Shown piece by piece: positions 20,101-53,355 of a stretch of 64,000 bases of DNA (positions within the stretch are counted from its first letter, which is position 1; every line of letters begins with the position of its first letter). The notes beneath the pieces were generated by a model. The model ran no database searches. It had not been told where the DNA came from and saw only the letters and a program-made list of their open reading frames with translations. The stretch is from NCBI GenBank assembly GCA_964291315.2, contig OZ219753.1, positions 2,592,001-2,656,000 on the forward strand. Reading direction: 5' to 3'. This stretch comes from Candidatus Poribacteria bacterium. Its GTDB lineage: Bacteria; Poribacteria; WGA-4E; WGA-3G. The translations under genes were made by a program, and so were the position numbers.

Positions 20101-20260
20101 GATAGATCAGTATCGCGCCAAAAGGGACAAGTGGAGTGGGCTGGTCAGCGATCCGAATTGTGCGGAGGCGCCGCGCTATATTGTGGAGTTAATTGGCAAG
20201 GTAATTACGGTGAGTTTAGAGACGGTGGCAATCGTTGAGAAGCTGCCACCGATAGCGTAG
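17189..20260 (+). CDS. single-chain RM enzyme: PD-(D/E)xK nuclease + N6-adenine MTase + type ISP-like C-terminal specificity region
   Basis: IPDG...WEAK; DPFVGTG; GNPPY; YRPF, TQCFP, SALEWVIDQY. Confidence 0.88.
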   Translation: MPHLNIRTTHKPIRQYYAELEKYAQLGEQNEGIVRAAFQHLLQHYCHQAKLTLLCEKTHYTSEKKRIIPDGEVVDTYGLPHGYWEAKDTHDDLLLEAAKKFDAGYPSKNIVVQSPTRALLYQDGQLQLDADITDPRNLVQVLQTFFTYQEANIAAWHTAVADFKAAVPALGAKLAALIKTERQNNAHFREAFTDFHQQCCACIDPSLSVAAVEEMLIQHLLTERIFATVFKNRDFTRRNIIARDIETVIDVLTEHALNRDQFLQSLDPFYAAIESTAATLTAFSQKQHFLNTVYEQFFQGFSVKVADTHGIVYTSQPIVDFMVNSVQHLLETEFDRSLSDSGVHIIDPFVGTGNFIVRLMQVLDPISLERKYTADPPELQCNEVMLLPYYIASLNIEQQFYTAMRRYSAYEGICLVDTFEVSEARQIALFAPANTERVERQKRTPMFVVIGNPPYNAGQKRESDNNKNRRHPIVDARVAETYVKDSAAQNPNKLYDPYVKAIRWASDRIGSEGIVALVTNNSFLDGIAFDGVRKHLAADFDVIYVLDLGGDVQRGLKVSSANVFGIRVGVSINLFVKNRDRSSEQPRIFYYRTDELWDKDQKFAFLNSSQHVGGVAWQSIEPDARHAWLTEGLDSAFDTFTPMGTKAAKASAGKTVGVLFKTYSLGISTSRDAWTYNFNRDALTENISRMIETYNAEVARWTQRTNREVNVDNFVVYDDTKIKWSSTLKQKLQSGQITAFTDAKIRSSLYRPFTKSNLYFDRMMNERVREFPFIFPKPQVETENRAICVSCPGTKSPFRTLMVDAIPDIHITGDTQCFPFYIYDEDGSNRRENITDWALAHFRSHYKDDSISKWDIFHYTYGLLHHPDYQKKYEANLKRDLPHIPFATDFWAVATAGAQLAELHANYESQPEYEHLRLIQNPEVPLNWRVEKMKLSKDRTQLTYNDFLTLADIPPEVFAYRLGTRSALEWVIDQYRAKRDKWSGLVSDPNCAEAPRYIVELIGKVITVSLETVAIVEKLPPIA

Positions 20261-36775: not shown

Positions 36776-37809
36776 TTGACACCACTGCTTAAAGTTGAAT
36801 CCATTACAAAGTGCTTTGCTGCTACCCCTGTCGTTAAAGATTTGGGTTTCGCAGTTTATCCAGGGGAAATCTTCGCGCTGCTAGGACCAAGTGGTTGTGG
36901 AAAAACGACCACACTCCGCATAATAGCAGGCTTTGAAAGGGCGGACACTGGGACTATCTCTATGGGAAAACGTCCCCTCGTAAACAGCACGCTTCACGTC
37001 CCACCTGAATCGCGCGGCATCGGTTTTGTGTTCCAAGACTATGCCCTTTTCCCACACATGAACGTTCTCGACAACGTAGCCTTCGGCCTCCGAAATGTGC
37101 CCAAAAAAAAGAGGCGTGAACGGGTCTTTGAGATACTGGATATGGTCGGTTTGAGGAATCTACATGCACGGTTACCGCACCGCCTCTCGGGCGGCGAGCA
37201 ACAGCGGGTTGCGCTTGCACGCTCCATCATCGCCCGTCCGAAGCTCTTGCTTTTAGACGAACCTTTTTCGAGCCTCGATCCGGGACTGCGCCAAGCAACT
37301 AGAGATGAAGTCAAGGCACTCTTGAAAGCTGAGGGTATTAGCGCGGTGTTCGTTACCCACACGCAAGAAGAGGCGTTGAGTTTTGCCGAGCGCTTAGGGG
37401 TAATGAAGAACGGCACGGTTGAACAGATTGGCACGCCTGAAACTGTATATCAGCACCCGAAAACAGCTTACGTTGCTGATTTCCTCGGACAGACGAACTT
37501 CATCAACGCTTATGTGAAAAATGGGATCGCTGAAACGCCATTTGGACAGTAGAAGTGGAGGGAACCGCTACTGGGAAGATGCTGTTATCTATCCGCCCTG
37601 AACACTTAAAAATGATAACTCCTAATGCCGAAAATAGCGGCTCAAAAGAGGGACGTGTTGTTGGACAGGCGTTTAAGGGACACTATTTTACGTATCAGGT
37701 TGAAGTAGAAGGACAATCCTACTTCGTTCAGACAGACTCCCGTTGCTCATTCCAGGTTGATGATACTGTGCAGCTGAGAACGATTTCCGCGGTAGCGGTT
37801 GACAGGTAG
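36776..37809 (+). pseudogene. FbpC/PotA-type ABC ATPase with TOBE domain, frameshifted near 37548
   Basis: GPSGCGKT, LSGGEQQR, LDEP, VTH; the C-terminal SIRPE/TOBE part continues in another frame (37555..37809). Confidence 0.8.
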
Positions 37810-37885: not shown

Positions 37886-40006
37886 CTACAGCATACTCCG
37901 AATTTCGTTAATCCCCTGGATCATACGCCTCAATGCGTCAGCCAGTTTGTCGAGCTCCGCTTGCACTGCTAAATCATCTCCATGCTCTAAGGCATCTATA
38001 ACACCTGGAAAAACGACCGCGGCGTAGCCCGTATTTAGCCCAGGAGCGTAGATGAGGTGCTTAAACCACGGACGCAAGGGCAATCCTGCCTCAGTTGTCA
38101 AGCTTCGTTCCAACTGATACAACCGCTGATTTATCTCCATCACTGTAGAGAGATCCCCGGCAGCAAGGTAGCCGTAGAGCTCTTGATTTAGCAACCCGGC
38201 TGCTTGCTGCCATTCCGTCAGAAGTCTATCTAACGCTGCGACATCTTTAGCGATCTTGTTTTTTGAACCAGAGTTTTGCAAGAATTTTAAGGGAGTCATC
38301 AGGGCCGTTGCATAAGTTTCATAGTCAAACGGCAAGACATCGGCGTTAGCAAGCTGCAGCGCAAGTGTTCCCCAAATCTTTGCCATTGCTGCTTGGTACT
38401 GAAACGTTGGGTCTCCGAAGTTTTCCATCCAGTAAAAGTTGTCTTGCATAGCGTGATAGACACCGTAGGGGCCACCGAATCCCATACTGACCGAGGAGAT
38501 ACCGGCATGTCCAATAAAAGGCGAGTGATCCGAACCGCTTCCGAGGTTCCCCACTTGTGGGATCTCCGTGCCTTGTCTCATTCTCCAACTTTCGTAAACG
38601 GGTTTCAGCGTCCGGGGGTCAATGACTTTTTGTGTTACCTCGCGAATTAATTCCTGCAGCGATGGTATCGCGCTTACATAGAACTCCTTACCAGTTGCTG
38701 CGATGTCCACGTTCAAGTACACAACGGCTTTCTGCTGGAGCGTCGATTTCAACTCCTCAACCCATTCACTTGAGCCCAAGACACCGAATTCCTCAGCGTC
38801 CCATGCGGCGAAAACGATACTCCGCTTTGGACGCATGCCGGCTTTGGCGAGTTTTCCTAAGGATTGTGCGACTTCTAATAGTGCAGCCGTGCCGCTTCCT
38901 GGATCCGCGGCACCATAAATCCAAGCATCGTGATGGTTGCCTAATATAACCCACTGGTCTGGATATTCTGTGCCTTCTAAGGTAGCGATGACGTTGTAAA
39001 TTGGACGGATGCTGTGATCACAACGGACTTTGAGGCGCACTTCTGCTGGTCCCGGGCCGATGTGATACGCAAAGGGTAAACCGCCTTGCCATTCCGCGGG
39101 GACGTTGGGGCCCGCGAGCGCCTTCAGAAGTGGTTCTGCGTCTCTATAGGCGAGTGGGACGACAGGGATCTTGGGCAGATCTGTGGCATCCGCAATCGTG
39201 ATTCTCTCGGCGTCTGCTGTCGCTGCCCATCCCGGTGTGAGCGGATCACTGGCGTGCTGGAAGATGTATTTGACCGTTCCACGTTGTATCGCATCAGCGG
39301 AACGCCATGGCCCCTGGGGATAAACATCTCCACGCATATAGCCGTCATCGGCGGGATCAGAGTAAAGAATCAAGCCAACAGCACCGTTATCGCCAGCGAC
39401 TTTGGCTTTCACACCGCGATAGCTGCCTCCATACCGCGCAATACAGATTTTCCTGTTTACTGAGATACCTCGGGCACTGAGAATTTGATAATCCTCAGGT
39501 AACCCTCTGTTGACATAGACGAGCTCAGCGGTTACATCGCCATCGGGTGAATAAGCGTTATATCCGGCAACGATGTCGGTTTCATAAGAGTCTTTATCCC
39601 ACTCCCAACTTGCCTCTTTGCCAAAAGCGACATACTCGTTAGGCGAAACCAGCTCGACATGCACCTCAAGTGGATACGGAAGGTAGACTTTATATTCATA
39701 CATCTCCACCTTCAAACCGTAGCTCTCAAACGTGTCACGAAGATACCTTGCCACCTTCTGGCTATTCTCAGTTCCTGCAAGGTGCGGTTCTTCACTGAGA
39801 TGCCGTAATTTATACCGGCATCCCTCAGCTGAAATCTGTTCTCGGAAAGCGTTCTCATATTGTTCTTGTGTAATCGCGTTTTCCGCTGTGAAACCGCGCA
39901 CCCCGGAAACGTCATTGGGAAAAAATGTAAATACAACAAGGTAACCAGAAACACAGACAATGAGTCTCCACGTCTGCTTTCGAAAATAAAAAATATCTAT
40001 TAGCAT
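37886..40006 (-). CDS. M28 glutamate carboxypeptidase II-like peptidase (PA and TFR-dimer domains)
   Basis: PHLAG, GNHHDAW, DPGSG, WDAEEFG..GSSEW, GSGSDH, YH, WFKHLIYAP. Confidence 0.92.
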   Translation of the reverse strand: MLIDIFYFRKQTWRLIVCVSGYLVVFTFFPNDVSGVRGFTAENAITQEQYENAFREQISAEGCRYKLRHLSEEPHLAGTENSQKVARYLRDTFESYGLKVEMYEYKVYLPYPLEVHVELVSPNEYVAFGKEASWEWDKDSYETDIVAGYNAYSPDGDVTAELVYVNRGLPEDYQILSARGISVNRKICIARYGGSYRGVKAKVAGDNGAVGLILYSDPADDGYMRGDVYPQGPWRSADAIQRGTVKYIFQHASDPLTPGWAATADAERITIADATDLPKIPVVPLAYRDAEPLLKALAGPNVPAEWQGGLPFAYHIGPGPAEVRLKVRCDHSIRPIYNVIATLEGTEYPDQWVILGNHHDAWIYGAADPGSGTAALLEVAQSLGKLAKAGMRPKRSIVFAAWDAEEFGVLGSSEWVEELKSTLQQKAVVYLNVDIAATGKEFYVSAIPSLQELIREVTQKVIDPRTLKPVYESWRMRQGTEIPQVGNLGSGSDHSPFIGHAGISSVSMGFGGPYGVYHAMQDNFYWMENFGDPTFQYQAAMAKIWGTLALQLANADVLPFDYETYATALMTPLKFLQNSGSKNKIAKDVAALDRLLTEWQQAAGLLNQELYGYLAAGDLSTVMEINQRLYQLERSLTTEAGLPLRPWFKHLIYAPGLNTGYAAVVFPGVIDALEHGDDLAVQAELDKLADALRRMIQGINEIRSML

Positions 40007-40150
40007 TGTAATTAGTTATTACCCTCTTCTCTGTTTGTGTAGATCATAACATATTTCGCGGATACCTTCATTATATTTTACGAGGGTAGTTAGCAAGTCA
40101 ACATCCATTTTGGGTTAATGTTGAATCGCCAACTACGCAAAATCAAAGTT

Positions 40151-40224
40151 TGTGTAAAGAATCAATGGAATCTGTGCAAAGAATTAATCGGACAATTGAT
40201 TTTATCGCCACTATATGTTAAAAT
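40151..40224 (+). promoter_or_regulatory. phoB promoter with upstream direct repeat
   Basis: TTGATT-17-TAAAAT (40196-40224); TGTG(T/C)AAAGAAT repeated at 40151 and 40173. Confidence 0.5.
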
Positions 40225-40263
40225 ATAGTTAAGAGCTAAGGATTGACTACATAGGAGATTTAA

Positions 40264-40956
40264 ATGACTGCTAGGATTTTAATTGTAGAAGATGAAACGG
40301 ATATCGTAGACCTGCTGCAGTATAATTTACAAGAGGCTGGATTTGAAACGGACTACGTTCGGAACGGGGCGGATGCCCTGCATCGTGCTGTTGAAAAATC
40401 ACCAGACCTCATCTTGTTAGATCTAATGCTTCCAGAGGTAGATGGCCTTATTGTTTGTCGTCTATTGAAAAACGACCCAAGGACTAAAAACATCCCGATT
40501 GTTATGGTAACCGCTAAAGCTGAAGAGCGGGACCGTATCGCAGGTCTAGAACTAGGTGTGGACGACTACATCACTAAGCCGTTCAGTCCAAAAGAGGTAG
40601 TCCTACGGGTTTCAGCCGTGTTGCGCCGCATCCACACCGGCGAGCAGACAAAGGAGACCAAGCAGATCCAAAGGCACGGATTAACCATTGATCTTGATAA
40701 ACATCAAGTCCTGACCGAAACAGGGCCGATTGACCTCACTGCTACCGAGTTTAAACTTATCACACTTTTTGCACGTTCACCCGGACGTGTCTTTACCCGA
40801 GATATTCTAATGGATGTGATATGGGGCGAGGAATATTACGGCATCGATAGGACCGTAGACACACACGTCAGCAGGCTTCGCCGCAAGCTCGGTCAATTCG
40901 GGAATCATGTAGAGACGGTGCACGGCGTTGGATATCGGTTTAAAGAGGGGATCTGA
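40264..40956 (+). CDS. phoB: OmpR/PhoB family response regulator, probably PhoB
   Basis: VEDE, LDLMLP, KPF, LTATEF, RTVDTHVSRLR, TVHGVGY; linked to pst/phoU. Confidence 0.8.
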   Translation: MTARILIVEDETDIVDLLQYNLQEAGFETDYVRNGADALHRAVEKSPDLILLDLMLPEVDGLIVCRLLKNDPRTKNIPIVMVTAKAEERDRIAGLELGVDDYITKPFSPKEVVLRVSAVLRRIHTGEQTKETKQIQRHGLTIDLDKHQVLTETGPIDLTATEFKLITLFARSPGRVFTRDILMDVIWGEEYYGIDRTVDTHVSRLRRKLGQFGNHVETVHGVGYRFKEGI

Positions 40957-41003
40957 CCTCAATCTCTGATCTTATTGTTCATGTTCATCATAGAGGTACT
41001 ATC

Positions 41004-42095
41004 TTGAGATTTCCTGGAGCAAAATTGTTAAAAACACGGGTATTTAAAAGATATTCCGAAAAGGTTGGACTGCCACCCGGAACCCTTGTTTATGTCGGAG
41101 AAGAAGACACAGAACCTGTTCGGATTACGGTTACTGATTATAATGATACATATTTTCATAAAGAAGAGGTTCAAACGATCCAGGAATGTTTACATTTCAC
41201 ATCATCCGAAACCGTCACGTGGATTCACATCGAGGGAATTCATGAAACAGAAATCATTGAAGAGATTGGAGAGCACTTCGAGGTCAATCACCTAGTCCTT
41301 GAGGACTTGATGAGTCCAACCCAACTTCCCAAAATAGAGGTATATGAAGGTTATGTTTTTATTATTCTCAAAAGCCTCTACTATGAACCCACAGCCTTAG
41401 GCGTTTCCAGAGAACAGATCGGACTTATTATCGGTAAGAATTTTGTGGTATCTCTCCAAGAAACTTCTACGGGCCTCTTCACATCAGTTCAAAATAGGAT
41501 CCAAAAGGCCCAGGGCAGAATCCGGAAGATGCATTCTGACTACCTCGCGTATGCTTTGATAGACGTTATTGTTGACTACTATTTTATGGCCTTGGAACAA
41601 CTCAGCGAGGCAATCCTAGTGGTGGAAGAAGAAGCCATCGCGGACCCTACACCAGAAGTTCTAGAAAAAATCAATATCTTGAGAAAAGAGTGCCTTCTTC
41701 TACGTAGACCGCTGCTCCCATTCCGTAACGTGGTTAATGAGATTTTAGCAGCTGAGATTCCGCTGCTTGGAAAAGAGACATATCTGTATTTTCGCGATGT
41801 TTATGATCACCTGATTCAGGTGATCCATACATTAGAGATGCTTCGGAGTACAGTCTCAGGACTATTTGATACCTATACCTCGGCGGTTAGTCATCGAATG
41901 AATGAGGTTATGAAGGTTCTGACTATTGTTGCTACATTTTTTATTCCGTTGACCTTCATTGCCGGTATTTACGGAATGAATTTCAAATCTATGCCAGAAC
42001 TTGAAATGCCATGGGGATATCCTGCTATCTTGTTAGTCATGGTGGGCATCAGCATCTTTATGTTCATCTATTTTAAACTCAAAAAATGGTTCTGA
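41004..42095 (+). CDS. corA: magnesium/cobalt transporter CorA
   Basis: GLPPGT, YFRDVYDH, MNEVMKVLT, YGMNF, MPEL. Confidence 0.95.
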   Translation: MRFPGAKLLKTRVFKRYSEKVGLPPGTLVYVGEEDTEPVRITVTDYNDTYFHKEEVQTIQECLHFTSSETVTWIHIEGIHETEIIEEIGEHFEVNHLVLEDLMSPTQLPKIEVYEGYVFIILKSLYYEPTALGVSREQIGLIIGKNFVVSLQETSTGLFTSVQNRIQKAQGRIRKMHSDYLAYALIDVIVDYYFMALEQLSEAILVVEEEAIADPTPEVLEKINILRKECLLLRRPLLPFRNVVNEILAAEIPLLGKETYLYFRDVYDHLIQVIHTLEMLRSTVSGLFDTYTSAVSHRMNEVMKVLTIVATFFIPLTFIAGIYGMNFKSMPELEMPWGYPAILLVMVGISIFMFIYFKLKKWF

Positions 42096-42386
42096 ATTTC
42101 TTTAAATCAACCGAAACTTTATCAGAGTCAACAAGTAAAACGAGAAAACCTATAAAGATGTGAGTACTGCATACCGAATGCATCTGATTTAGTCTAACCA
42201 ACCTGTAATACCTATCCGCGAACCGATTGGCAACGGATAATAGTGAACCACTGGCAGAAAAGTAATACTATAAGTATACGGCAACTTTGCGGGTTACGCT
42301 ATAGCTGTCGGACAAAGTGCTTAGAGCACGGGTACCAACATTATTGACGATAGTTGTATCTGACAAATACCAGAAAGGGGAATACA

Positions 42387-43286
42387 ATGTTTGCAGATGT
42401 CATAGCAAGTTTGGAAAACTTCATAAGTTCTATAGTTAACTCGCCCTTCAGAGGCATCATTTTAAGTGTTTTCACAATCTCGACTTTACTTATTATCAAG
42501 CCAATTTCAGGGTACTTTGTCAAAAGGTACGTCTACCAAAACGCTCAAGTGGAATCAAAAGCCCAAAACTTCATGGCGGTCTGGGGGTATACCTGGACGG
42601 CGATCATCGCTATCTTTGGAATTATTAGTCTCAGTGGCTCGTTGAAAACGCTGGGTATCTCAGCAGGATTTCTGGGGATGGTTTTGGGCTAGTCCTTGCA
42701 GGCACCGGTTACAGGGATCGCGGCCTGGTTGATGCTTATTTTAAAACGGCCCTTCAAGATTGGAGATCGTGTCATTATTGCCGGTGTCACAGGCGACGTT
42801 ATGGATATTACCTTAACGCACGTCATCTTGAACCAAGTTGGATGAACTGTCTCTAGCGAGGAACGTTCGGGGCGCGGCATCCTCATCCCGAATGCAATTC
42901 TTTTTGGCCAGACAATTACCAACTACACCTTAGAAGAGGAGTATATTTTGGTTGAGGGGCCCGTACGGATTACCTTTAAATCAGATTGGGCGGAAGCAGA
43001 ACGAATTCTGTTGAGGGCGGCACAAGAGGTTACAGCCGACATTATCAAAGAGATCGGAGAGGAGCCTTTTATTCGCGCGGAACTCTTTGACGCAGGAGTA
43101 ATGATGCGACTGCGCTACAAAACGCGCCTAGTAGATCGAGCAAAAAGTCTGAGTGATATTGTCAAAATTATCTTTCATGAATTCTCAAAGAATAAAAACG
43201 TTGCGTTCTGTTACGCACACTCAGAAATCATCTATTCATGGAAAGATCAAACCGCCCTGCTGGGGAATCTACGTGAGGTCCAATGA
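42387..43286 (+). pseudogene. MscS mechanosensitive channel with two in-frame stops
   Basis: Single frame with TAG 42690-42692 and TGA 42843-42845; RPFKIGDRV, IPN motifs. Confidence 0.85.
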
Positions 43287-44182
43287 TGTTGTGGGACATC
43301 TGGAACGCTCTTCTAAATTTCAAATATATTTCTATGGTCTGGATGGTCTTGGCGGTCATCAGTGCTATTATCGTCTATTTCCGCCTGACCATCCAAATGC
43401 GGAAGTTTACGGACGGCAGTGCCTATAGAAGCAAGAACGTCGATAGATTCTTCGTTATCTGGTGCTACGTCTTCATGTTTTCGATAGGTGGACTGATCGC
43501 CTTTCTCTTTTCAGATGTCTTCGGCTTGATGGGGTTGTCTTTAACCTTTATTATGACTCTCACGGGTTGGGGGATCCGAAATCCCGTTACAAACTTAGCA
43601 GCATGGTTACTAATTATTCTTAAGAGACCTTATCATATTGGAGATCGTGTCATCTTAAATACAATTATTGGCGATGTAGTGAACATCTCGGTTATGCATA
43701 CACAGTTAGAGCAAGTTGGAGGCACGATCGGCGGTGAAGAAAAGTCAGGTCGGAGTGTCCTGATTCCCAACCAACATCTTTTCAATTGGAACGTAATTAA
43801 CTACACACGGAACGGAAAATACATTCTCGATGAGATAATCCTTCGATTGACATATCGTTCCAATATAGCTCGCGCCGAACAAATTCTTCGTGAACAAGCA
43901 ACAGAAGTGACAAGAGACATATGTACTGAGACAGGTGAAACCCCTTATGTGTTATTTGAGTTCATTCCATCTGGAGTCGTCGGCAAGCTAAGATACCGTG
44001 TTATTGCTGCAAAACGGTAGCAAACCTCAACATTAATCGTGGAACGGATCTCCAAAGCATTTCTGGGCGAGGAGCGGATTGAGTTCGCCTACATGAAAAG
44101 TGAAGAACTATTAAGACCCAAGGAGGCACTATCGATGCCTCCACAATACCTATGTACCCAACAGCTTGATGAACACCATTAG
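43283..44182 (+). pseudogene. MscS mechanosensitive channel with in-frame TAG
   Basis: RPYHIGDRV, IPN; TAG 44018-44020 followed by an in-frame tail that aligns with the paralog C-terminus. Confidence 0.75.
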
Positions 44183-44199
44183 CAGAGAAAGAACGTAAG

Positions 44200-45372
44200 A
44201 TGAACGAATGGATTCAACGATTAGCAGCTCTATTTGAAACTCCTATTATTCCATCAGATACTCCCGTAAAAGCCTGGCAAATTGTCGTGTTAATTTCGAC
44301 TTTGACGGTTTCCTTCGCACTTGCTGGACTTTTACGTGGATGGTTCCGCAGCATGTTTCATCGGCTCCGAATTTCACAAAACATCGAAGGCCGACTGCTT
44401 GCATTTCTCTTCCTCACTGTTATGGTTGTGGGAACTATTTTGGGATTACGGTTTGCAGGCATAGGAACAGGAATACTTACCAAATTCTTTCACTATCCGT
44501 TGACAAACCTCTTTCAGCCAGCTGCTGCCGACACAGCAGGCGGCGAGACAAACAACCTAACCTTAGCACGTCTGTTCTATGCGTTCGTGATTGTTTTCGG
44601 GATGTTCATTCTGTCGAAGTACGCACAATGGGCGCTACGGAAACAAGTGTTACAAGCGTTTCAAATTGCAGCGCATACCCAATTTGTCCTCCTCCGCTTT
44701 CTTCATTTCAGTCTTATCAGCCTGGGTGTTATTATCAGCCTGAGCGCTATCGGGGTAAGTTTCACGAGTCTTGCATTGATCTTCGGTGGGCTGAGTATCG
44801 GCATCGGTTTCGGTTTACAAAATATTGCATCCAATCTAATCTCAGGGTTTATTCTCATCTTTGAACGCCCTATCAAAATCGGGGACCTTGTCGAGATTAT
44901 GGACATTAATATTTTCGGTAGAGTTAGCAGTATCAACCTTCGTTCAACGATCATCGTCTCACTTGACGAGAAAGAGATTATCGTTCCCAATTCTCAATTG
45001 ATTACAGAATCCGTTCATAACCTCACACACGCAAATAACTTTTTCCGACTCAATGTCGATGTAGGAGTTTCCTACGGTTCGGACGTAGATCTCGTTAAGA
45101 GAGTGCTCCTTGAAGCAGCACACGAACATCCGCAAGTCATTAAAGAACCGAGATCTACTATGGAGAGCGTCACCGCCCCATTTGTTCGTTTCGTGAATTT
45201 CGGAGAGTCGTCCTTAAATTTCCGTCTATTGGTGTGGATTCCAGACTCTTTTCAGCGTTTTGATATTGCCAGTGACCTTCATTTCATGATCTGGCACAAA
45301 TTTCAAGCGTACGATATTAAAATCCCATTCCCACAACGCGATGTCCATTTTTATTCAACAGAAAACAGGTAA
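44200..45372 (+). CDS. MscS mechanosensitive channel, intact
   Basis: GIGFGLQNIASN.ISG, ERPIKIGD, IVPNS, FGESS, IPFPQRD. Confidence 0.93.
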   Translation: MNEWIQRLAALFETPIIPSDTPVKAWQIVVLISTLTVSFALAGLLRGWFRSMFHRLRISQNIEGRLLAFLFLTVMVVGTILGLRFAGIGTGILTKFFHYPLTNLFQPAAADTAGGETNNLTLARLFYAFVIVFGMFILSKYAQWALRKQVLQAFQIAAHTQFVLLRFLHFSLISLGVIISLSAIGVSFTSLALIFGGLSIGIGFGLQNIASNLISGFILIFERPIKIGDLVEIMDINIFGRVSSINLRSTIIVSLDEKEIIVPNSQLITESVHNLTHANNFFRLNVDVGVSYGSDVDLVKRVLLEAAHEHPQVIKEPRSTMESVTAPFVRFVNFGESSLNFRLLVWIPDSFQRFDIASDLHFMIWHKFQAYDIKIPFPQRDVHFYSTENR

Positions 45373-45495
45373 TGCTTGGTGATTAGCAGCCAGCTCACGA
45401 CTGCCAACAAGAGTTGTCTCGAAAGTGCGTTTCTATAGGAAGGCGATCAGGAAGCACTTAGATTAGGAAATCCATCCCCGAACTGCTGAATGGGT

Positions 45496-46137
45496 CTAAG
45501 AATGCCGGATGATGTTGCCCTTGACGAGATAGTAGACCTCTTCGCTGATGTTTACTGCAAGGTCCCCCACCCGTTCGAGATGCCGGAAGAGAAGAAGGAT
45601 GCTGATACCCGGTGGGACGAGTTTTGGATGTTCAGTTAGAATGGCCAAGAGTTCATAGAGCATCTTTTCATAGATATCATTAACCTCGTTGTCACGTTCT
45701 CGGACCTCTAAAGCGAGTTCAGCGTTACGATTGACGAGCGCGTCCAGTACATCTTTTACCATGGTCTGAATCACTTGTGCTACATACGGCAGATCCACGA
45801 AGGGTTTAACGGGCGGATACTCCAACAATTCAAGACTCCGTTTCGCAATAGCAACGCTCTTATCGGCAAGCCTTTCAATGTTGATACTAATCTTCATTGC
45901 CATCGTCAGAAAGCGGAGCTCAAAGGCGACTGGTTGATAGAGTGCGATCAGTTGGATACAGGATGACTCGATCTCGTTTTCAAACTGATCAATCTGATCG
46001 TCCGTATTAATCACCGTCTGTGCTAACGTCTCGTCTCGCGTTAAAACCGATTCAATGGCTTGACGTAGCATTTGCTCGGAAAGCCCCGCCATTTCCAAAA
46101 GTTTATGTTGAAGTTCTCTGATTTCGTTTGCTAACAT
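45496..46137 (-). CDS. phoU: phosphate signalling protein PhoU
   Basis: D..ID, YQPVAFELR, ER.AD, ERVGD..VNI.E. Confidence 0.93.
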   Translation of the reverse strand: MLANEIRELQHKLLEMAGLSEQMLRQAIESVLTRDETLAQTVINTDDQIDQFENEIESSCIQLIALYQPVAFELRFLTMAMKISINIERLADKSVAIAKRSLELLEYPPVKPFVDLPYVAQVIQTMVKDVLDALVNRNAELALEVRERDNEVNDIYEKMLYELLAILTEHPKLVPPGISILLLFRHLERVGDLAVNISEEVYYLVKGNIIRHS

Positions 46138-46166
46138 TTTTCAATTATCTGCTTCTGTGGTCTCGC

Positions 46167-46946
46167 TTATCCCATTCTGCCTGTTACGTACTGTTCGGTT
46201 CTGCTATCTCGTGGGTTGGTAAAAATTTTCTCCGTGGCCCCAAATTCAATCAATTCACCACCGTAGAGGAACCCGGCAACATCAGAGACGCGCGCAGCTT
46301 GTCTTCTTTTGTTAGTCGCAAAAATAAGTGTACAATCGTTTGCCAGCTCCCGCACAAGTGTCTCAATCTTAACAGTCTCAATAGGATCGAGCTCACCACA
46401 CGGCTCATCAAATATCAAAACTTCTGGTTCAGCGGTCAAAGCGCGTGCAATACAGAGCAGTTGTTGTTGTCCAGTGGACAACTGTTCAGCGGTTTCGTCC
46501 AAGATGTCCCTGACATCATTCCATAGCCCGGTCCTTCGGAGACTTTTCTCAACGACGCTATTCAACGCCGAGTCCCGCCTCACACCGGAAATTCGAGCCG
46601 CGTATGTCACATTTTCTTGTATAGAGCCTTGAAATAGAATCGGTTTTCGAAACACCATCCCGATTTTTTTTCGAACAGTTGTGGCATCCTGATCGACATA
46701 CAAAGATCTGCCCTTGAAAAGGATTTCCCCGGTGAACCTGAAATTCGGTGTAAAGTCGTTGAGTCGATTGAAACATCGGATGAGTGTGCTTTTGCCGCAG
46801 TTGGTGGGGCCCATAAGTGCGGTTACTCGTTTCCGTTGAATTTCAAAAGAGAGATTTCCGAGAATTTGCTTATCGGCATACCAGATATTTAGGTTACGAA
46901 CAGTGAGAATAGATTTCTTTTTTGCAGTCATCATAGCTGCTAACAT
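46167..46946 (-). CDS. divergent PstB-like ABC ATPase (copy 3)
   Basis: GPTNCGKST, LSTGQQQ, IFTNPRD.RTEQYVTGRMG; lacks Q-loop Gln and H-loop His. Confidence 0.8.
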   Translation of the reverse strand: MLAAMMTAKKKSILTVRNLNIWYADKQILGNLSFEIQRKRVTALMGPTNCGKSTLIRCFNRLNDFTPNFRFTGEILFKGRSLYVDQDATTVRKKIGMVFRKPILFQGSIQENVTYAARISGVRRDSALNSVVEKSLRRTGLWNDVRDILDETAEQLSTGQQQLLCIARALTAEPEVLIFDEPCGELDPIETVKIETLVRELANDCTLIFATNKRRQAARVSDVAGFLYGGELIEFGATEKIFTNPRDSRTEQYVTGRMG

Positions 46947-46973
46947 GTATAGAAGAAAAACGAAGGCCGTGTG

Positions 46974-47804
46974 TCATGCCAAAACAGAGGAATGTCTCTC
47001 AGCAAGGAAGCTTGAGAAAATACTCAATAGTAATGCGCAGCCTAAAAACAACACAAATTTGTCCAACATCTGTCCACATTGCGCGGGACGACTCCATATA
47101 TAGATACCGACGAACAACGCCGCGGCAGCAAGCGCACAAGACATTGCACGACATCCGCCTGAAAGTATCCCCGGGAGTGAAAGCGGCACGATATGCCCCA
47201 TTAACACTTGTCGTTGGTTAGCGCCGAGTGCATAAGCAGCTTCACGAATCGGTATCGGCACAGACCAGAGCGCCGCTTGTGTCGTCTTAATCGTCCTTGG
47301 CATCACTAACAAAATAAAGGTCAGTGTTGCGATGTAAAACAGGGACGTATCCCCTCGAAAAGTGCTTGTCTTTAAGGAAGAAGTGTCTAAACCTCCAAGG
47401 GCCAGAGGCACCTCAATCCCTGTGAAAACGCCACTATAGGGCAGAAAGATTGCGGCTGCTAAAAGTCCATATAAGATCGAAGGGACACTGCTTAAAATGC
47501 TGACATGACTCTCTATGAAACGCCGAACCCAGCTAGTTTCTCGAAGCCACTCCTCCACGTAAAAAGCACAGAGCACCGCAAACACAATTGCCAAAAAACT
47601 GATGTAGAGAAAAAAATAGAGATCGTTGAGCGGATTCGATGGCGGCTCCGACTCACGGACTACTGACGATAGTTGCACATCAGAGACGGGTAGTTTTGAC
47701 AGGACGTACCATATTGGAATGAACATCGCTCCCAATATAACGAGAGCTATACCCCGCAAAGCAAATTTTTGCCTCGGGTTTGAACGCATCATTAAGGTGT
47801 TCAT
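46974..47804 (-). CDS. divergent PstA-like permease (copy 2)
   Basis: SVPSILYGL, REAAYALGA EAA motif; GETAP motif absent. Confidence 0.75.
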   Translation of the reverse strand: MNTLMMRSNPRQKFALRGIALVILGAMFIPIWYVLSKLPVSDVQLSSVVRESEPPSNPLNDLYFFLYISFLAIVFAVLCAFYVEEWLRETSWVRRFIESHVSILSSVPSILYGLLAAAIFLPYSGVFTGIEVPLALGGLDTSSLKTSTFRGDTSLFYIATLTFILLVMPRTIKTTQAALWSVPIPIREAAYALGANQRQVLMGHIVPLSLPGILSGGCRAMSCALAAAALFVGIYIWSRPAQCGQMLDKFVLFLGCALLLSIFSSFLAERHSSVLA

Positions 47805-47921
47805 AGTATCGGTCCCCTTATCAGATCTCATCTGTCAGTTATTAGTACCCACAAGAAGTATTTATAGTAGTTGTGTACGACTGACATAGCAAATGTTGAT
47901 CCTAAGAGACGAGGACTTCCG

Positions 47922-48707
47922 TTATCCGTATCGCATCTGTACATAATCCGCTGTTTTGGGGTGTTGTGGTGTCTGAAAAAGTGCTTGTGTCTCCTCGTGC
48001 TCAATAAGTTCCCCAAGAAACATAAAGATACACTCTTTGCTCACGCGTCGCGCTTGTGCCATGTTATGGGTCACAATTAAAAATGTGTATATCCCGGCAA
48101 GGGCTTCCATCAATTCTTCAACAGCCCGTGTCCCTTTAGCATCCAATGCTGAACACGGTTCATCCATCAGGATAATTTTCGGTTTCAGCGGTAACAGACG
48201 GGCGATACAGAGTTTCTGTTGTTGTTCAAGCTGAAGTGAGGTAGCACGCGCCTTCAATTTATCTTTCAAATCGTCCCACAAGAAAACGGAGGTCAGCGCT
48301 TCTTCAACAATTTGGTCTGATTCCGTTCGTACCAGACTCCGCAAAGGGGAGTGAATCCGCAAACCGAATAAGACATTCTCATAAACCGAGATCGGCAACG
48401 GATTCGGGCGCTGGAAGACCATGCCGACTGCTTTTCTGAGCTCTGGTAAAGAGACATCTGGATCGTAGATATTTTTACCGAGAACCTCAATTTTCCCGAC
48501 TGTGGTGACATTACCGTAACGCTCATTGACACGGTTAAAACAGCGGAGTAGGGTTGACTTGCCACACCCTGAAGGCCCAATAAGAGAAGTTATCTGACCA
48601 TCACGGATTTTCAGGTTGACATCAATAAGCGCTTGAAAATCTTCATACCAGAGATTGAGGTTTTCGGTTTGAACGCTATAATTTAAGGACATAATTTGTG
48701 TACTCAA
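47922..48707 (-). CDS. pstB: phosphate ABC transporter ATPase PstB (copy 2)
   Basis: GPSGCGKST, GMVFQRPNP, MDEPCSALD, VTHN; signature altered to LQLEQQQ. Confidence 0.9.
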   Translation of the reverse strand: MSTQIMSLNYSVQTENLNLWYEDFQALIDVNLKIRDGQITSLIGPSGCGKSTLLRCFNRVNERYGNVTTVGKIEVLGKNIYDPDVSLPELRKAVGMVFQRPNPLPISVYENVLFGLRIHSPLRSLVRTESDQIVEEALTSVFLWDDLKDKLKARATSLQLEQQQKLCIARLLPLKPKIILMDEPCSALDAKGTRAVEELMEALAGIYTFLIVTHNMAQARRVSKECIFMFLGELIEHEETQALFQTPQHPKTADYVQMRYG

Positions 48708-48779
48708 TTTCTCAACGTGTGTCTCTAGATCAGTTATAAGGTGTCTAAGTACTTGTGGACTGTGCCCTAAAAAACCAGT

Positions 48780-49565
48780 TTACCCGAAATTTCCATTGAT
48801 GTAATCATAAGTGGAACGGTTTGTCGGATTGGTGGAAAAGATTACATCTGTTCTATCAATCTCAACGAGATCACCGTTGAGCATAAAGGCGGTTCGGTCT
48901 GCTAAGCGTTTTGCCTGTTGAACGAGGTTGGTAACGAGAAGAATCGTCATTTCTGTACGTAAGGTTTTCAATACCTCTTCAATGCGCATCGTTGTAACCG
49001 GATCAATAGCAATAGAAAATTCATCAAGGCAGAGAATCTCCGGTTGATGTGAAAGGGCACGCGCGATTGTGAGGCGTTGTTGTTGACCGCCCGACAGCTT
49101 CGTACCGAGCGTATCTAGCCTGTCCTTGACTTCATCCCACAAGGCTGCTTGCTGCAGGCAGCGTTCGACGATCTCATCCAATTCCGATTTTGAGCGAATC
49201 CCTGCTGTCCGCGGCGCGAAGGCGACGTTATCGTAGATCGAAAGCGGAAGGCCTACGGGCAAAGGGAGCACCATACCGATGCGGCGGCGCAACCCATACA
49301 CATCGCTAATTGTGCTAATGTTTGCACCGTCGAGCTTTACAGAGCCTCCTACGGTCGTTTCTGCTGTCAATTCCAACGTTCTGTTGATAACTCTTAAGAG
49401 CGTGGTTTTACCGGACTGTGCAGGACCGATGATACCGAGAATTTCATTCTTATAAACATTAAAAGAGATGCCGTTCAGAGCATGTTTATCCCCGTAACGC
49501 ACCGTCAAGTTGTTAATTTCAATTAGAGGTTCGTTTCGTGCCCCGTTACTGCGATTCATGTTCAT
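48780..49565 (-). CDS. pstB: phosphate ABC transporter ATPase PstB (copy 1)
   Basis: GPAQSGKTT, ALWDEVKDRL, LSGGQQQR, YINGNFG. Confidence 0.88.
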   Translation of the reverse strand: MNMNRSNGARNEPLIEINNLTVRYGDKHALNGISFNVYKNEILGIIGPAQSGKTTLLRVINRTLELTAETTVGGSVKLDGANISTISDVYGLRRRIGMVLPLPVGLPLSIYDNVAFAPRTAGIRSKSELDEIVERCLQQAALWDEVKDRLDTLGTKLSGGQQQRLTIARALSHQPEILCLDEFSIAIDPVTTMRIEEVLKTLRTEMTILLVTNLVQQAKRLADRTAFMLNGDLVEIDRTDVIFSTNPTNRSTYDYINGNFG

Positions 49566-49570
49566 ACTTC

Positions 49571-50326
49571 TTATTCACTTTTCGGATTGCTAGATGCCGT
49601 AGTCCGATTTTCCTCTTTAGCTTCTTCTCCTATTTCGCGCTCCACACGTGCCTCGGTCAAAGCCGAGGCTAACAAACCAGAGGGAATTGCGATAAGTCCG
49701 ACACCAACAAGCGTGACAAGCGCAGTGAAAACCTTCCCACCCGCAGTTTCTGGGTAGACATCGCCATAACCGACGGTCGTCAATGTCACGACAGCCCACC
49801 ACATTGAATCGAGGATAGATCCGAAGGCTTCAGGTTGGCTATCTTTTTCAAAATAGTGGATCCCACATGCAGCGAGATAGACAAGCATCAGCGATAAAAT
49901 AACGAGCGCTAAGAGCTCCTGCTGGATACCCCGGAGCGCCGCTGCGAGCCGGTCCACTGCGAGAATAAAACGTGTCGCCTTGAAAATTCTGAAAACCCGT
50001 AAGAATCGGAGTACACGTAGCACACGAAACCCCGGGACAAGGAACAGAGAAGGCAAAATCGAAAGTAAATCAATTATGCCGTAGAAGCTAAGAACGAAGT
50101 CCCGTTTTTTGGTTTCAATGTAGACGCGAAGAGCATATTCTATTGAAAATAGAACAAAAAACACCCAGTCGAGCAGAATAAAAAGTGTCGCATATTCCGC
50201 TAACTCCCACACATGGCTATCGGCTTCGAGCACAAAGGTGACAGCGGAGGCAAGAATTAGAAACTGGATGACGGCGGTAAATATGTTACCTTCAATAATA
50301 TCGCGTAATTTCTCTTTTTTCGCCAT
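49571..50326 (-). CDS. 6TM voltage-gated potassium channel (ion transporter)
   Basis: S4 RVLRVLRFLRVFRIFK; WWAVVTLTTVGYGD selectivity filter. Confidence 0.92.
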   Translation of the reverse strand: MAKKEKLRDIIEGNIFTAVIQFLILASAVTFVLEADSHVWELAEYATLFILLDWVFFVLFSIEYALRVYIETKKRDFVLSFYGIIDLLSILPSLFLVPGFRVLRVLRFLRVFRIFKATRFILAVDRLAAALRGIQQELLALVILSLMLVYLAACGIHYFEKDSQPEAFGSILDSMWWAVVTLTTVGYGDVYPETAGGKVFTALVTLVGVGLIAIPSGLLASALTEARVEREIGEEAKEENRTTASSNPKSE

Positions 50327-50368
50327 GAACGTCTCTTTCTATCAGGAGTAGCGTTCACGACACTACCT

Positions 50369-51286
50369 CTACCACTTCTTCCGGGTTCTAAGATAAACCC
50401 TCAGCACAATCGCAGCCGCGTTGACAAGTAGGACACTCCCTACAAGTGCTATTGCAGTCCCGTAGGGAATTCCTTCGCTAACATCCGGTACCTGTGTTGA
50501 AATTGTAAAAAGATGTAGAGATAATGCCATGCATTGTTCCGTTATATTATAGGCGAAAATATCTCCTTCTGCAATAGCTTTATAGAAGACTGCCCCGGTG
50601 AACATGATAGGGGCCGTTTCGCCAGCTGCACGCGATACTTGTAAAATAACGCCTGTCAGGATCCCACTAATTGAATTCGGGAGCACAATACGGCGAATCG
50701 TTTGCCAGCGCGTAGCACCAAGGTTCCAGCAGGCCTCTCTAAACGACATCGGCACCGCTTTAAGCGCCTCTGTGGTGCTAGCGATAATAACTGGAAGTGT
50801 CATGATTGCCAGTGTAAGCGAGGCCGCGAGTATCGACTCACCTAACCTTGCAAAAAGTACAAAGGCACCAACTCCAAACAAGGCATGAACAATACTCGGC
50901 ACTCCCGCAAGATTGACAACGGCCAAATTTGTGATACGTGTAAACCAATTTTCACGAGCATACTCGTTGAGATAGACTGCTGCGAATACACCGATGGGGG
51001 CTGACACCAATAGCGAGACCACTACCAAATAGATTGTCCCAAGAAAGGGGGCCCAAAGTCCACCTGCACGCATGTTGTCCTTCGGGTTCGTAAACAAAAA
51101 TTCCAAAGAGAGGACAGGCAGCGCCTTGTAGAGCAGGTAGCCGATAATGAGAAGCAACGGGATAATCATCAGGCTTGTTATTACAAGTAGAAGCACCCGT
51201 ACCCCATTTTCTATTTTCCGTTTTTGTCGAGCAACCGCTGTTTCCGTAAACATGGCGTGTGACGATGCCTGCGCGTCAGTGTTCAT
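50369..51286 (-). CDS. pstA: phosphate ABC permease PstA
   Basis: YLNEY, NLAGVPSIV, SRAAGETAP. Confidence 0.93.
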   Translation of the reverse strand: MNTDAQASSHAMFTETAVARQKRKIENGVRVLLLVITSLMIIPLLLIIGYLLYKALPVLSLEFLFTNPKDNMRAGGLWAPFLGTIYLVVVSLLVSAPIGVFAAVYLNEYARENWFTRITNLAVVNLAGVPSIVHALFGVGAFVLFARLGESILAASLTLAIMTLPVIIASTTEALKAVPMSFREACWNLGATRWQTIRRIVLPNSISGILTGVILQVSRAAGETAPIMFTGAVFYKAIAEGDIFAYNITEQCMALSLHLFTISTQVPDVSEGIPYGTAIALVGSVLLVNAAAIVLRVYLRTRKKW

Positions 51287-51329
51287 ACGTCTCTACCTAC
51301 TTTTACAAAGACTCCTGTGTTATATTCCA

Positions 51330-52235
51330 CTATTCTTGACGGATTCCTTTGATAGCTAAATCAGCAATGAGATTCACAGCAAACGTGATAGTAAAAAGGA
51401 GAATACCGATAATAAAAAGGACTTGATAGTGTTCACCACCTCTAGCGACTTCCCCTAATTCTGCAGCGATTGTTGCTGTCAATGTACGGATCCAAGAGAG
51501 GGGCCCTGACGGAATGTTAACGGAATGCCCGGTCGCCATCAGGACAGCCATCGTTTCGCCGATAGAACGTGCTGCACCGAGCAGCACTGCTGCCAACAAT
51601 CCATTTTTCGCAGCAGGTAGAAGCACGCGGTAGACCACCTGCCATCGAGTTGCTCCGAGCGCCTCTGCCGCTTCCCGGTAGGAGTCAGGTACAGCTTTGA
51701 GGGCATCTTCAGCTATGGACACAATAATAGGAACGCTCATCAAAGCGAGCATGATGCTCCCATTTAGCATGGTTAAGCCGATGGGGGCGTTGAACACAGC
51801 AATAATCAGCTGATTCATCAGCGTCAACCCGATGAAACCCCACACAACCGAAGGGATAGCAGCAAGCAATTCAATGATAATTTTAAACATCTCTCTGAAC
51901 TTTGGACTACAGAATTCCGAGACAAAGATGGCTGCGCCTAGGCCAAAAGGAACTGCAAGACACATGGCTAAAACCGTAACGCTAAAAGTGCCTACAATTA
52001 AAGCGAAAGCCCCATATCGTTTGTTGTTCAGAGAAGTTGGTTGCCATTCTACACTTGTCAGAAACTCTTTCAAATCTAAACCGTTGAAGAGAAAACCTGC
52101 GCCCTCTCGAAATACAAAGAAAAAGATACCGAATACAAAGATAATCGAACTAATACCACAGAGACGGATAAATAATTCGATGGCTGTTTCAGAGAACGAC
52201 AGATCCGCAGTGCTTTTTTTGCGTAGAAAATTCAT
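51330..52235 (-). CDS. pstC: phosphate ABC permease PstC
   Basis: ELLAAIPSVVWG, REAAEALGA, RSIGETMAVLM. Confidence 0.93.
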   Translation of the reverse strand: MNFLRKKSTADLSFSETAIELFIRLCGISSIIFVFGIFFFVFREGAGFLFNGLDLKEFLTSVEWQPTSLNNKRYGAFALIVGTFSVTVLAMCLAVPFGLGAAIFVSEFCSPKFREMFKIIIELLAAIPSVVWGFIGLTLMNQLIIAVFNAPIGLTMLNGSIMLALMSVPIIVSIAEDALKAVPDSYREAAEALGATRWQVVYRVLLPAAKNGLLAAVLLGAARSIGETMAVLMATGHSVNIPSGPLSWIRTLTATIAAELGEVARGGEHYQVLFIIGILLFTITFAVNLIADLAIKGIRQE

Positions 52236-52241
52236 GTGTTT

Positions 52242-53171
52242 TTACGAGCTCTCTAACGGTACAAAACCGAGTTTCTCAACAATTGCCTGACCCGCTGCGG
52301 ATAGAATCCAATCAAGATATACTTTAATTTCGCCTATAGGTTCACCGAGGGAATACATGTATAGCGGACGAGCAATAGGGTAGGTCTTTGCAAGAACGTT
52401 TTCAAGGGTTGGCGGGTAATAAGGCGAATCCTCATCAACAGCAACCGCTAACATTTTAACGTGTGAGGTTGCATATCCCATTCCGCTGTAACCCATCGCG
52501 CACGGCGTTCTTCCAATTACCTCTACCACATCTTTTGAACCGTGCAAATCTAATGAGCCGATGCGAAAATCTCTGTTTTTCCCTAGAAGCGCCTCGCGAA
52601 AATAGAAGTAGGTGCCAGAATTAGACTGCCGACTGATGCGAATAATTTTGTCACTCGGACAGCGGCTATGTTTGATACCGAGCTGACTCCACCGGGTTAT
52701 CGTGCCTTTCTCACCATAAATTTCTGCAAGTTGTGGGATCGTGATTTTATCAAACGGCACATCGGGATGCACATAAACCGCAAGGGCATCGTAACCGACA
52801 ATAAATTCCTGTGGAACTTTACCCGTGTTTTGCTCCGCCTGCTCTAATTCTTTCGGTTTAATCTGGCGACTACAGTTGGCAATATCTACGGTTCCGTTGA
52901 TGAGCGCGGCAACGCCTGTGCCAGAACCACCACCTGATACTTCTACTGAAGCCCCGCTAGTCACACCGCTGTACATCTCCGCCCATGCTTGCGCGAGGTT
53001 CACCATTGTGTCCGAACCTTTGTTTTTGATGATGACATACGAAACCTCGCTACTTGCCTCATCTCCACTATCTTTGCCAGAACAACCGTTGATAACAAAT
53101 ACACACGCCAAAACGAGTATAATTTTTATGATTAGGTAACTGAACCAACTATCCCGCCGCATCCGCATCAA
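52242..53171 (-). CDS. pstS: phosphate-binding lipoprotein PstS
   Basis: Lipobox INGC; GSDT, GGGSGTG, SR, SGT..YF, YPIARPL. Confidence 0.93.
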   Translation of the reverse strand: MMRMRRDSWFSYLIIKIILVLACVFVINGCSGKDSGDEASSEVSYVIIKNKGSDTMVNLAQAWAEMYSGVTSGASVEVSGGGSGTGVAALINGTVDIANCSRQIKPKELEQAEQNTGKVPQEFIVGYDALAVYVHPDVPFDKITIPQLAEIYGEKGTITRWSQLGIKHSRCPSDKIIRISRQSNSGTYFYFREALLGKNRDFRIGSLDLHGSKDVVEVIGRTPCAMGYSGMGYATSHVKMLAVAVDEDSPYYPPTLENVLAKTYPIARPLYMYSLGEPIGEIKVYLDWILSAAGQAIVEKLGFVPLESS

Positions 53172-53200
53172 TTTGCCTCTCTTGAAAGATTTTGAATTAA

Positions 53201-53234
53201 ATTATAACACCCAATTGTTACGAAAATAAGACAA
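53201..53234 (-). promoter_or_regulatory. Pho-box-like site plus -10 element upstream of pstS
   Basis: Minus strand TTGTCTTATTTTCGTAAC-10 bp-TATAAT; 13/18 match to the E. coli Pho box with canonical spacing. Confidence 0.7.
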
Positions 53235-53355
53235 AATTCGGAATTTTTGTAATTCGCTATCACAATCTGAAAAAAGGATGCCCAAAGTCCTTACCTGCTA
53301 ATGAAAAATAAACGAGTGAGCAGAAGAGGAAAAGAGGTCGAGAATTCTCTGATTT

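Follow-up and report, generated by a model that had tools for sequence, protein, structure and literature searches.

Introduction

In phosphate-specific transport (Pst) operons of the Escherichia coli type, pstSCAB-phoU, the genes for a binding protein, two permeases, an ATPase and PhoU stand in that order, and the pst operon of Bacillus subtilis has two pstB genes, pstBA and pstBB. Classic work on E. coli reportedly found uptake of phosphate both to require K+ uptake and to go along with it, and polyphosphate-accumulating organisms take up K+ and Mg2+ as counter-ions together with phosphate. Voltage-gated K+ (Kv) channels of prokaryotes have been studied mainly as structural models, and their cellular role is, to our knowledge, a long-standing open question. 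Here we describe, in a 64,000-nucleotide stretch of a Candidatus Poribacteria genome (hereafter the window), a pst operon that contains between pstA and pstB a gene for a predicted, complete Kv-type channel, and we report that throughout one bacterial family this K+ channel has a fixed place in the pst operon.

Poribacteria are described, in PMC5087111 and in one abstract, as common symbionts of marine sponges that occur at high density inside the host. The genome analysed comprises 4.4 Mb in four contigs and is 95.2% complete; the window is C4:2592001-2656000. A first-pass annotation, made from the letters of the window alone, had singled out positions 40264..53234 as a PhoB-controlled island in which phosphate import would be coordinated with K+ and Mg2+ supply and with osmotic release through mechanosensitive channels, possibly serving polyphosphate storage. 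Genes were assigned by Pfam and NCBIfam profile scores with the cut-offs of the models, 50 open reading frames (ORFs) of the window being scanned in Pfam. Searches of the literature, with most papers in subscription journals outside their coverage, returned no description, for Poribacteria or any other organism, of a pst operon that includes a K+ channel, and none of a Kv channel with an operon partner of the pst kind.

Results

Gene content of the phosphate-uptake operon

The minus-strand unit of the locus is best read as a single nine-gene phosphate-uptake operon, pstS-pstC-pstA-Kv-pstB1-pstB2-perm3-pstB3-phoU. Its presumed co-transcription is consistent with intergenic gaps that all measure 5-90 bp and with terminator-like matches no commoner than in shuffled sequences (14 versus 12.5). 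The phosphate-binding protein is encoded by pstS (52242..53171; TIGR02136 213.7 bits, cut-off 206.6; PF12849), the two permeases by pstC (51330..52235; TIGR02138 269 bits, cut-off 196.45) and pstA (50369..51286; TIGR00974 254.6 bits, cut-off 193.45), and the distal end is formed by phoU (45496..46137; TIGR02135 198 bits, cut-off 130.25), so that PstS, PstC, PstA and PhoU all score above NCBIfam equivalog cut-offs. Three PstB paralogues, pstB1 (48780..49565; 287.9 bits), pstB2 (47922..48707; 310.7 bits) and pstB3 (46167..46946; 302.8 bits), fall below the TIGR00972 equivalog cut-off of 343.2, PstB still being their best family, and a PstA-like membrane protein, here termed perm3 (46974..47831), reaches 87.8 bits against the same TIGR00974 cut-off as pstA. 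The first-pass annotation had overlooked the nine-gene size of the unit, its composite nature, the three PstB paralogues and the additional PstA-like permease.

The channel gene (49571..50326, minus strand) encodes a protein of 251 residues with six transmembrane helices that matches PF00520 at 114.7 bits (cut-off 25). As that annotation had stated, it lies inside the operon, starting 42 bp after the pstA stop and ending 5 bp before the pstB1 start.

Conservation of the channel within the operon

The same locus was found in public Candidatus Poribacteria metagenome-assembled genomes and single-cell genomes. Synteny was compared in 80 Poribacteria loci with 10-kb flanks, and the window's family was sampled as 112 genomes from six genera, a Kv orthologue being a match with E <= 1e-60. 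The linkage proposed from this one assembly extends well beyond it: the order pstA-Kv-pstB1 occurs in 79 of the 80 loci and the complete nine-gene order in 76, the other four being cut by contig ends (L044, L048) or continuing into unrelated genes (L041, L091). Spacing and gene length are likewise kept, with a median Kv-to-pstB1 gap of 5 bp over the 80 loci and a Kv ORF of 234-278 residues in 79 of them. Within the window's own genus pstC-pstA-Kv-pstB1-pstB2 is present in 18 of 19 loci, the nineteenth being without pstA within the 1.5 kb covered, and the order pstA-Kv-pstB1 recurs in 4/4 loci that represent three more of the family's genera. A Kv orthologue is encoded by 111 of the 112 family genomes; in the one counted as a miss, a contig ends within the gene, beside pstB1. 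All this holds while the flanks of the operon have been reshuffled repeatedly (position of Kv kept in 79/80). The Kv-pst linkage is thus far beyond chance, and throughout the family the operon has the channel as a constant component.

Beyond the family the association ends. Kv homologues of the sister family (~30% identity) have pst neighbours in none of six loci, and among 78 non-poribacterial loci from many phyla with Kv relatives of 33-57% identity, none has pstS, pstC, pstA or phoU within 6 kb.

Pairwise ratios of nonsynonymous to synonymous substitution (dN/dS; NG86 method) were estimated against 11 close loci, or 10 for perm3; the values, which are rough because dS is near saturation (0.8-1.4), are 0.11 for Kv, 0.10 for pstS and pstB3, 0.02-0.08 for pstC, pstA, pstB1, pstB2 and phoU, and 0.20 for perm3. 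Rough as they are, they show Kv to be under purifying selection.

Predicted properties of the channel protein

By its architecture, S4 segment, charge-transfer centre and selectivity filter, the product of 49571..50326 is predicted to be a complete Kv-type channel. The TVGYGD filter and S4 voltage sensor claimed for it are both present, the latter reading RVLRVLRFLRVFRIFK, with five Arg and one Lys spaced at every third position; the filter stands in the context TLTTVGYGD. Six helices form an S1-S4 sensor and an S5-P-S6 pore (PF07885 66.9 bits, besides PF00520), with no T1 or other cytoplasmic domain, so that the protein would be a minimal channel. In an alignment of 37 Kv sequences F60 and E63 (S2), D86 (S3) and R104 (S4) are invariant, and G186, Y187 and G188 of the filter and the S6 Pro are likewise unchanged. 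An AlphaFold2 model (pLDDT, predicted local distance difference test, 89.1) matched the transmembrane region of human Kv4.2 (7UKF) in Foldseek with a TM-score (template modelling score) of 0.76 and E 4e-10. The closest solved structures are Kv1.2 (2A79) and Kv4.2 at ~97 bits, followed by KvAP (1ORQ/2A0L/6UWM) at 68-71 bits. In NCBIfam the best match is to a model of a hyperpolarisation-activated channel from archaea, with a score (61.5 bits against a cut-off of 300) too weak to bear on gating polarity.

An exhaustive profile search with Kv returned one poribacterial cluster representative at 67% identity and then many short bacterial channels at 43-50%, the named ones from Pseudomonadota, Verrucomicrobiales and Salipiger; the nearest relatives with a name are annotated as 'ion transporter' proteins. 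A eukaryotic origin, raised by the higher scores of Kv1.2 and Kv4.2 over KvAP, was rejected on this ground; with short bacterial channels as its nearest relatives, the gene is bacterial.

In 24 of the 80 loci a pore-only (S5-P-S6) K-channel paralogue of 106-125 residues lies between Kv and pstB1, overlapping the Kv stop; examples are L053, L055, L071, L076, L085, L090 and L093 (at ~10660-11110 in each). Some loci have retained an intact filter in this paralogue (TTIGYGDVYP), in others the filter has degenerated, and the window has no copy.

Composite origin of the operon and states of its ATPases

From comparison with 15 loci of other poribacterial lineages and sister genera (7 + 4 + 4), the operon appears to be a composite of two pst operons, pstSCA-B1-B2, which now contains Kv, followed by a relic, perm3-pstB3-phoU. 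The first type, an ordinary pstS-C-A-B-phoU, occupies seven loci of distant poribacterial lineages. Its PstB is most like window pstB3 in 6/7 of these, and its PhoU shares 53-65% identity with window PhoU in three lineages of the window's own order. The second type, pstS-C-A-pstB1-pstB2 with no channel, is found in sister families, at four loci spread over three genera; a distant phoU-like gene precedes pstS in three of the four, and PstA is 73-77% identical to that of the window. The window's family is represented by four loci, taken from three further genera, and in all four the second type has Kv inserted and is followed by perm3-pstB3-phoU.

The perm3 product is most readily seen as a fast-evolving, degenerate membrane protein derived from PstA that has lost PstA pathway motifs. 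It groups with first-type PstA in a quick tree (SH-aLRT, a Shimodaira-Hasegawa-like likelihood ratio test, 99), a placement to be taken with care given the nature of the tree and the long stem branch (1.85). In alignment its coupling-helix (EAA) region is near that of first-type PstA (REAAYALGA), the SRAIGETAP segment and an N-terminal PstA segment are missing, and in one genus the protein is shortened to ~205 residues.

The three ATPases differ in the motifs they have kept. PstB1 retains Walker A and B and a canonical LSGGQ signature; its H-loop reads VTNL (His to Asn) in 79/80 loci, and the Q-loop Gln is missing from its usual place (MVLPLP in 64/80, MVQPLP in 15/80). PstB2 has canonical Walker A and B motifs, Q-loop and H-loop together with a degenerate signature, LQLEQ, in 78/78. 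With defects so complementary, a PstB1/PstB2 dimer would be expected to have one consensus and one degenerate ATP site. PstB3 has an LSxGQ signature, an H-loop in which His is again replaced by Asn ([VA]TNK, 76/77) and a Q-loop Gln that is mostly replaced, by Arg in 50 of the 70 sequences listed. These states suggest that perm3-PstB3-PhoU has given up transport and may have a part in signalling.

The pstS promoter and putative Pho control

A predicted promoter precedes pstS at 53201..53236 (minus strand), in which a conserved 24-bp candidate operator (53213-53236) takes the place of the -35 region and is followed after 3 bp by an extended -10, TGTTATAAT. The arrangement, a core TTTTGTCTTATTTTCGTAACAATT, then 3 bp, then TGYTATAAT, is shared by 65 of 74 upstream regions with near-invariant columns. 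A position weight matrix (PWM) of the operator, over-fitted since it was built from one orthologous site, scores 44.8 bits at the window site, and the next best site in the 4.4-Mb genome reaches 21.8 bits and lies inside a gene, so the candidate operator occurs once in the genome.

The PhoB-like regulator of the OmpR family (40264..40956, plus strand), for which TIGR02154 PhoB is the best model at 254.7 bits (cut-off 296.2), has no close paralogue in the genome. Its gene has a promoter region of its own with 22-bp tandem repeats, and in relatives a TTGACA-17-TAAAAT promoter. The pstS and phoB promoters share only a TTTTGT core, and clusters of the half-site AATTTTTGTAA were found nowhere in the genome; common control by PhoB is therefore plausible, though putative. 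On the plus strand of the window the operator matrix scores no better than -4.2 bits, and no site of the pstS type was found in front of phoB, corA or mscS. In the comparison set phoB is convergent on the pst operon in 7/15 loci, among them three of the seven first-type loci, where it stands behind the operon.

The window encodes no PhoR kinase, as had been stated: none of the 50 ORFs scanned has a HisKA or HATPase_c domain (Pfam), and tblastn with the PhoR-like kinase of the genome was blank there. The best PhoR-like kinase lies elsewhere, on contig C3 (607 residues, HAMP-PAS-HisKA-HATPase_c, 289.2 bits, cut-off 334.2).

Expression in the sponge host

Expression values are available for the single-cell genome SAG 3G (contig_87.88, our locus L034) in three sponge metatranscriptomes, as tabulated in supplementary file 1 of PMC5087111. 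Mean values, in fragments per kilobase per million (FPKM), are 306.9 (standard deviation 329) for Kv, listed as 'Ion transport protein', 54.1 for pstS, 77.8 for pstC, 176.5 for pstA, 128.8 and 166.6 for two pstB genes, 77.9 for the third pstB, 65.7 for the third permease, 94.8 for phoU and 62.6 for mscS (PMC5087111). By this table all ten genes are expressed in the host, Kv along with the pst genes. The word 'phosphate' is absent from the main text of that paper.

The convergent corA-mscS unit and the ion-transport neighbourhood

On the plus strand, corA (41004..42095; TIGR00383 280.6 bits, cut-off 200.75), which encodes a Mg2+/Co2+ channel with YGMNF in its translation, starts 47 bp after the phoB-like gene, a spacing correctly reported before. 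It is followed by three mscS frames, of which two, counted earlier as genes, are broken by premature stops. The first, mscS_a (42354..43286), is a small MscS pseudogene, one frame with in-frame stops at TAG 42690 and TGA 42843. The second, mscS_b (43283..44182 with its tail; PF00924 52.8 bits), is cut by a premature TAG at 44018 (ORF 43283-44020), behind which read-through translation gives 59 further homologous codons, up to 44182. Only mscS_c (44200..45372; PF00924 78.3 bits, PF21082 56.2 bits), which resembles the MscK C terminus, is an intact gene with an MscS beta-domain. An alternative genetic code was considered for these stops and rejected because they mix TAG and TGA. Four runs, represented by contigs of one study, were compared at the stops: those of the three other runs (X2-X4) have G instead of T at 42843, and X3 and X4 have an 11-nt deletion at 42673. 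From 40000 to 46000, spanning phoB, corA and mscS, G+C is 0.42-0.45, below most of the window (~0.47-0.53).

With the plus-strand genes running up to 45372 and phoU closing the minus-strand unit at 45496, the two units converge as described earlier, and being convergent the corA/mscS unit is not co-transcribed with pst. Around the operon, mscS_c follows within 320 bp of phoU in 64 of 74 loci with room for it, a gene for an 804-residue SLC12-like protein (K-Cl cotransporter family; TIGR00930 322 bits, below the cut-off of 953) lies upstream of mscS_c on the same strand in 61 of 77 (e.g. L093:16215-18629, minus), and a 290-residue protein of no assigned family is encoded on the same strand behind mscS_c in 51 of 77. 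In the genome analysed here the SLC12-like gene is at C4:1383084-1385312, 1.2 Mb from the pst-Kv operon. An orthologue of corA is present in 53 of the 112 family genomes and absent from 59; a comparison of coordinates by hand places it within 25 kb of Kv in 35 of 38 same-contig cases and far from it in three, with 15 undecidable. As to the proposed phoB-corA linkage, no more than 12 of 28 loci with room have phoB immediately before corA. An ion-transport neighbourhood does exist, but a variable one, which converges on the pst operon without being part of it and which has undergone partial decay in this genome. An MscS-family gene immediately precedes the homologous Kv gene in three unrelated bacteria (L140, L149 and L160; records titled Pontiella, Brumimicrobium and Saprospirales).

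For K+ itself the genome has a TrkH transporter and a second K-channel-like gene; Kup and KdpA were not found in it.

Genes for polyphosphate metabolism

PPK1 (PF02503) was found in none of 41 genomes of the genus, and Ppx/GppA (PF02541) and PHO4/Pit (PF01384) have no match in this 95.2%-complete genome, in which one PPK2 is present. Bipolar granules of poribacterial cells are of low electron density and are interpreted, in the part of PMC5087111 that deals with them, as carbon reserves. The polyphosphate storage suggested by the first-pass annotation is on these grounds weakly supported.

Other features of the window

Two large single-chain restriction-modification enzymes are encoded on the plus strand, one Type ISP-like (17189-20260) and one Eco57I/TaqI_C-like (53568-57062), the start of the latter lying ~400 bp ahead of the pstS promoter, on the opposite strand. 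Eukaryote-like domains occur in an ankyrin-repeat protein (21373-22551, plus), an ELM1 (mitochondrial fission) family protein (6330-7406, minus) and a lipase-maturation-factor (LMF1) protein with a DCC1-like domain (1419-3560, minus). A DUF6785/DUF6784 membrane protein (34692-36623, plus) followed by an ATP-binding cassette (ABC) ATPase (36776-37552, plus) may form with it a transporter of an uncharacterised kind. At 59112-61432 (minus) an ABC exporter seems to have been split, its ABC_membrane domain being divided between the overlapping ORFs 60476-61432 and 59112-60626. With 4.4 Mb, in a genus that ranges from 4.3 to 6.7 Mb, the genome is a small one, and this, the split exporter and the nonsense codons in mscS together hint at gene decay.

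Discussion

A possible role for the channel in phosphate import

We propose, tentatively and with slightly less than even confidence, that the channel provides a K+ conductance co-expressed with Pst, balancing charge and supplying a counter-ion for imported phosphate. The operon would be switched on, presumably by PhoR/PhoB under phosphate limitation, so that importer and channel are made together. Pst would carry phosphate anions inward without a co-transported cation, and would on that account add negative charge inside; a Kv tetramer would sense the shift in membrane voltage and pass K+ down its electrochemical gradient, cancelling the charge and providing a counter-ion for the accumulated phosphate, with the voltage sensor restricting this current to periods in which import displaces the membrane potential. 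PstB1 and PstB2 would power import by pairing asymmetrically, so that one of the two ATP sites of the heterodimer is of the consensus kind. The perm3-PstB3-PhoU segment, a presumed relic of an older Pst system that has kept its docking helix and nucleotide binding and lost catalytic and pathway residues, would act as a signalling arm toward PhoR. The stronger form of the proposal, in which Kv is a voltage-gated K+ shunt needed by Pst for fast electroneutral phosphate accumulation and perm3-PstB3-PhoU a pure phosphate-signalling device, seems to us rather unlikely.

Several observations weigh against the proposed charge-balancing role. The arrangement is confined to one family, and sister lineages run pstSCA-B1-B2 with no channel (4/4 loci). 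The cell has K+ supply independent of Kv through TrkH. In the host, the three Kv replicates (37.5, 673.9 and 209.1 FPKM) do not run parallel to those of pstA (214.6, 91.1 and 223.7) in the supplementary table of PMC5087111, and this, together with low counts (17-268 reads), makes a separate Kv promoter possible. The direction of K+ flux is not fixed because gating polarity is unreadable from sequence, and the dN/dS estimates carry the saturation noted above.

Some of these same points are what would be expected if the channel had entered the operon by a chance insertion in the ancestor of the family, acted in general K+ or membrane-potential homeostasis, and been kept since removal would disrupt pst expression: a single origin, sister lineages without the channel, homologues elsewhere never linked to pst (0/78), replicate expression in the table of PMC5087111 that does not follow pstA, and other K+ routes in the genome (TrkH and the second channel-like gene). 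Against a mere passenger stand a position kept in 79/80 loci despite reshuffled flanks, the tight spacing to pstB1, purifying selection equal to that on pstS, and a pore-only duplicate that arose at the same site, and we regard this reading as unlikely. Less probable again is the view first taken of the whole stretch, a PhoB-controlled island of Pst, Kv, CorA and MscS that takes up phosphate with K+ and Mg2+ counter-ions, vents turgor and stores polyphosphate. Ion-transport genes do recur beside the operon (mscS_c 64/74, SLC12-like 61/77), corA is usually near Kv where this is decidable (35/38) and sometimes directly behind phoB (12/28), phoB is convergent on pst in 7/15 loci of other lineages, one PPK2 is present, and the pstS and phoB promoters have the TTTTGT core in common. 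But corA is absent from 59/112 genomes, two of three mscS genes are broken, the K-Cl cotransporter gene is 1.2 Mb away, the corA/mscS unit is separate and convergent with no copy of the pstS-type operator before phoB, corA or mscS, PPK1 was found in 0/41 genus genomes and neither PPX nor Pit in this one, and the granules appear in PMC5087111 as bodies of low electron density; the wider island has partial support.

Potassium can also serve as a messenger, as in B. subtilis, where the YugO channel releases K+ as a signal in biofilms. The voltage sensor might accordingly report the energy state of the cell to Pst, PhoU and PhoR, or phosphate starvation might open the channel to release a K+ signal. 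The operon already has a probably non-transporting arm (perm3, a PstB3 that has lost catalytic residues, and PhoU), and these symbionts are described as dense inside their host; against this, no contact site is evident in the sequence and the channel has no cytoplasmic domain, and we consider signalling the most improbable of the explanations weighed here. The charge- and counter-ion-balancing role remains the reading we prefer, at the strength given to it above.

Whatever its function, a complete Kv-type channel locked into a well-understood operon across more than 100 species-level genomes offers a concrete and testable hypothesis, with parts that are small and can be expressed: that the channel balances charge and counter-ions while anions are imported at the expense of ATP. 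Should Kv indeed be a working partner of Pst, a bacterial Kv channel would for the first time have a physiological role assigned to it. The locus also points to a merger of two pst operons, one of which would have kept transport with an asymmetric ATPase pair while the other decayed to an apparent signalling module, a history relevant to phosphate sensing by Pst, PhoU and PhoR. With regard to sponge symbiosis, the locus singles out the acquisition of phosphate as a trait that is especially elaborate in the host-associated poribacterial family.

Comparison with known systems

Set beside polyphosphate accumulators, the locus is alike in having cation channels next to a phosphate importer and unlike them in that PPK1, PPX and Pit were not found here and corA is patchy. 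With the E. coli-type pst operon it shares the gene order given at the outset, and with the Pho regulon of that type a putative regulator site at -35 before a good -10 and a PhoB-like regulator nearby; it differs in the K+ channel between pstA and pstB, in three PstB paralogues below the TIGR00972 cut-off, in an extra degenerate PstA and in having no phoR beside phoB. Two-pstB operons such as that of B. subtilis likewise have ATPase genes in tandem, here PstB1/PstB2 with complementary defects, whereas in the present operon a channel separates the pair from pstA and a third, H-loop-less PstB follows. The channel itself differs from Kv1.2, Kv4.2 and KvAP in being a minimal one, without T1 or other cytoplasmic domain, and has in common with all three the six transmembrane helices, the S4 gating charges, the charge-transfer centre and the TVGYGD filter.

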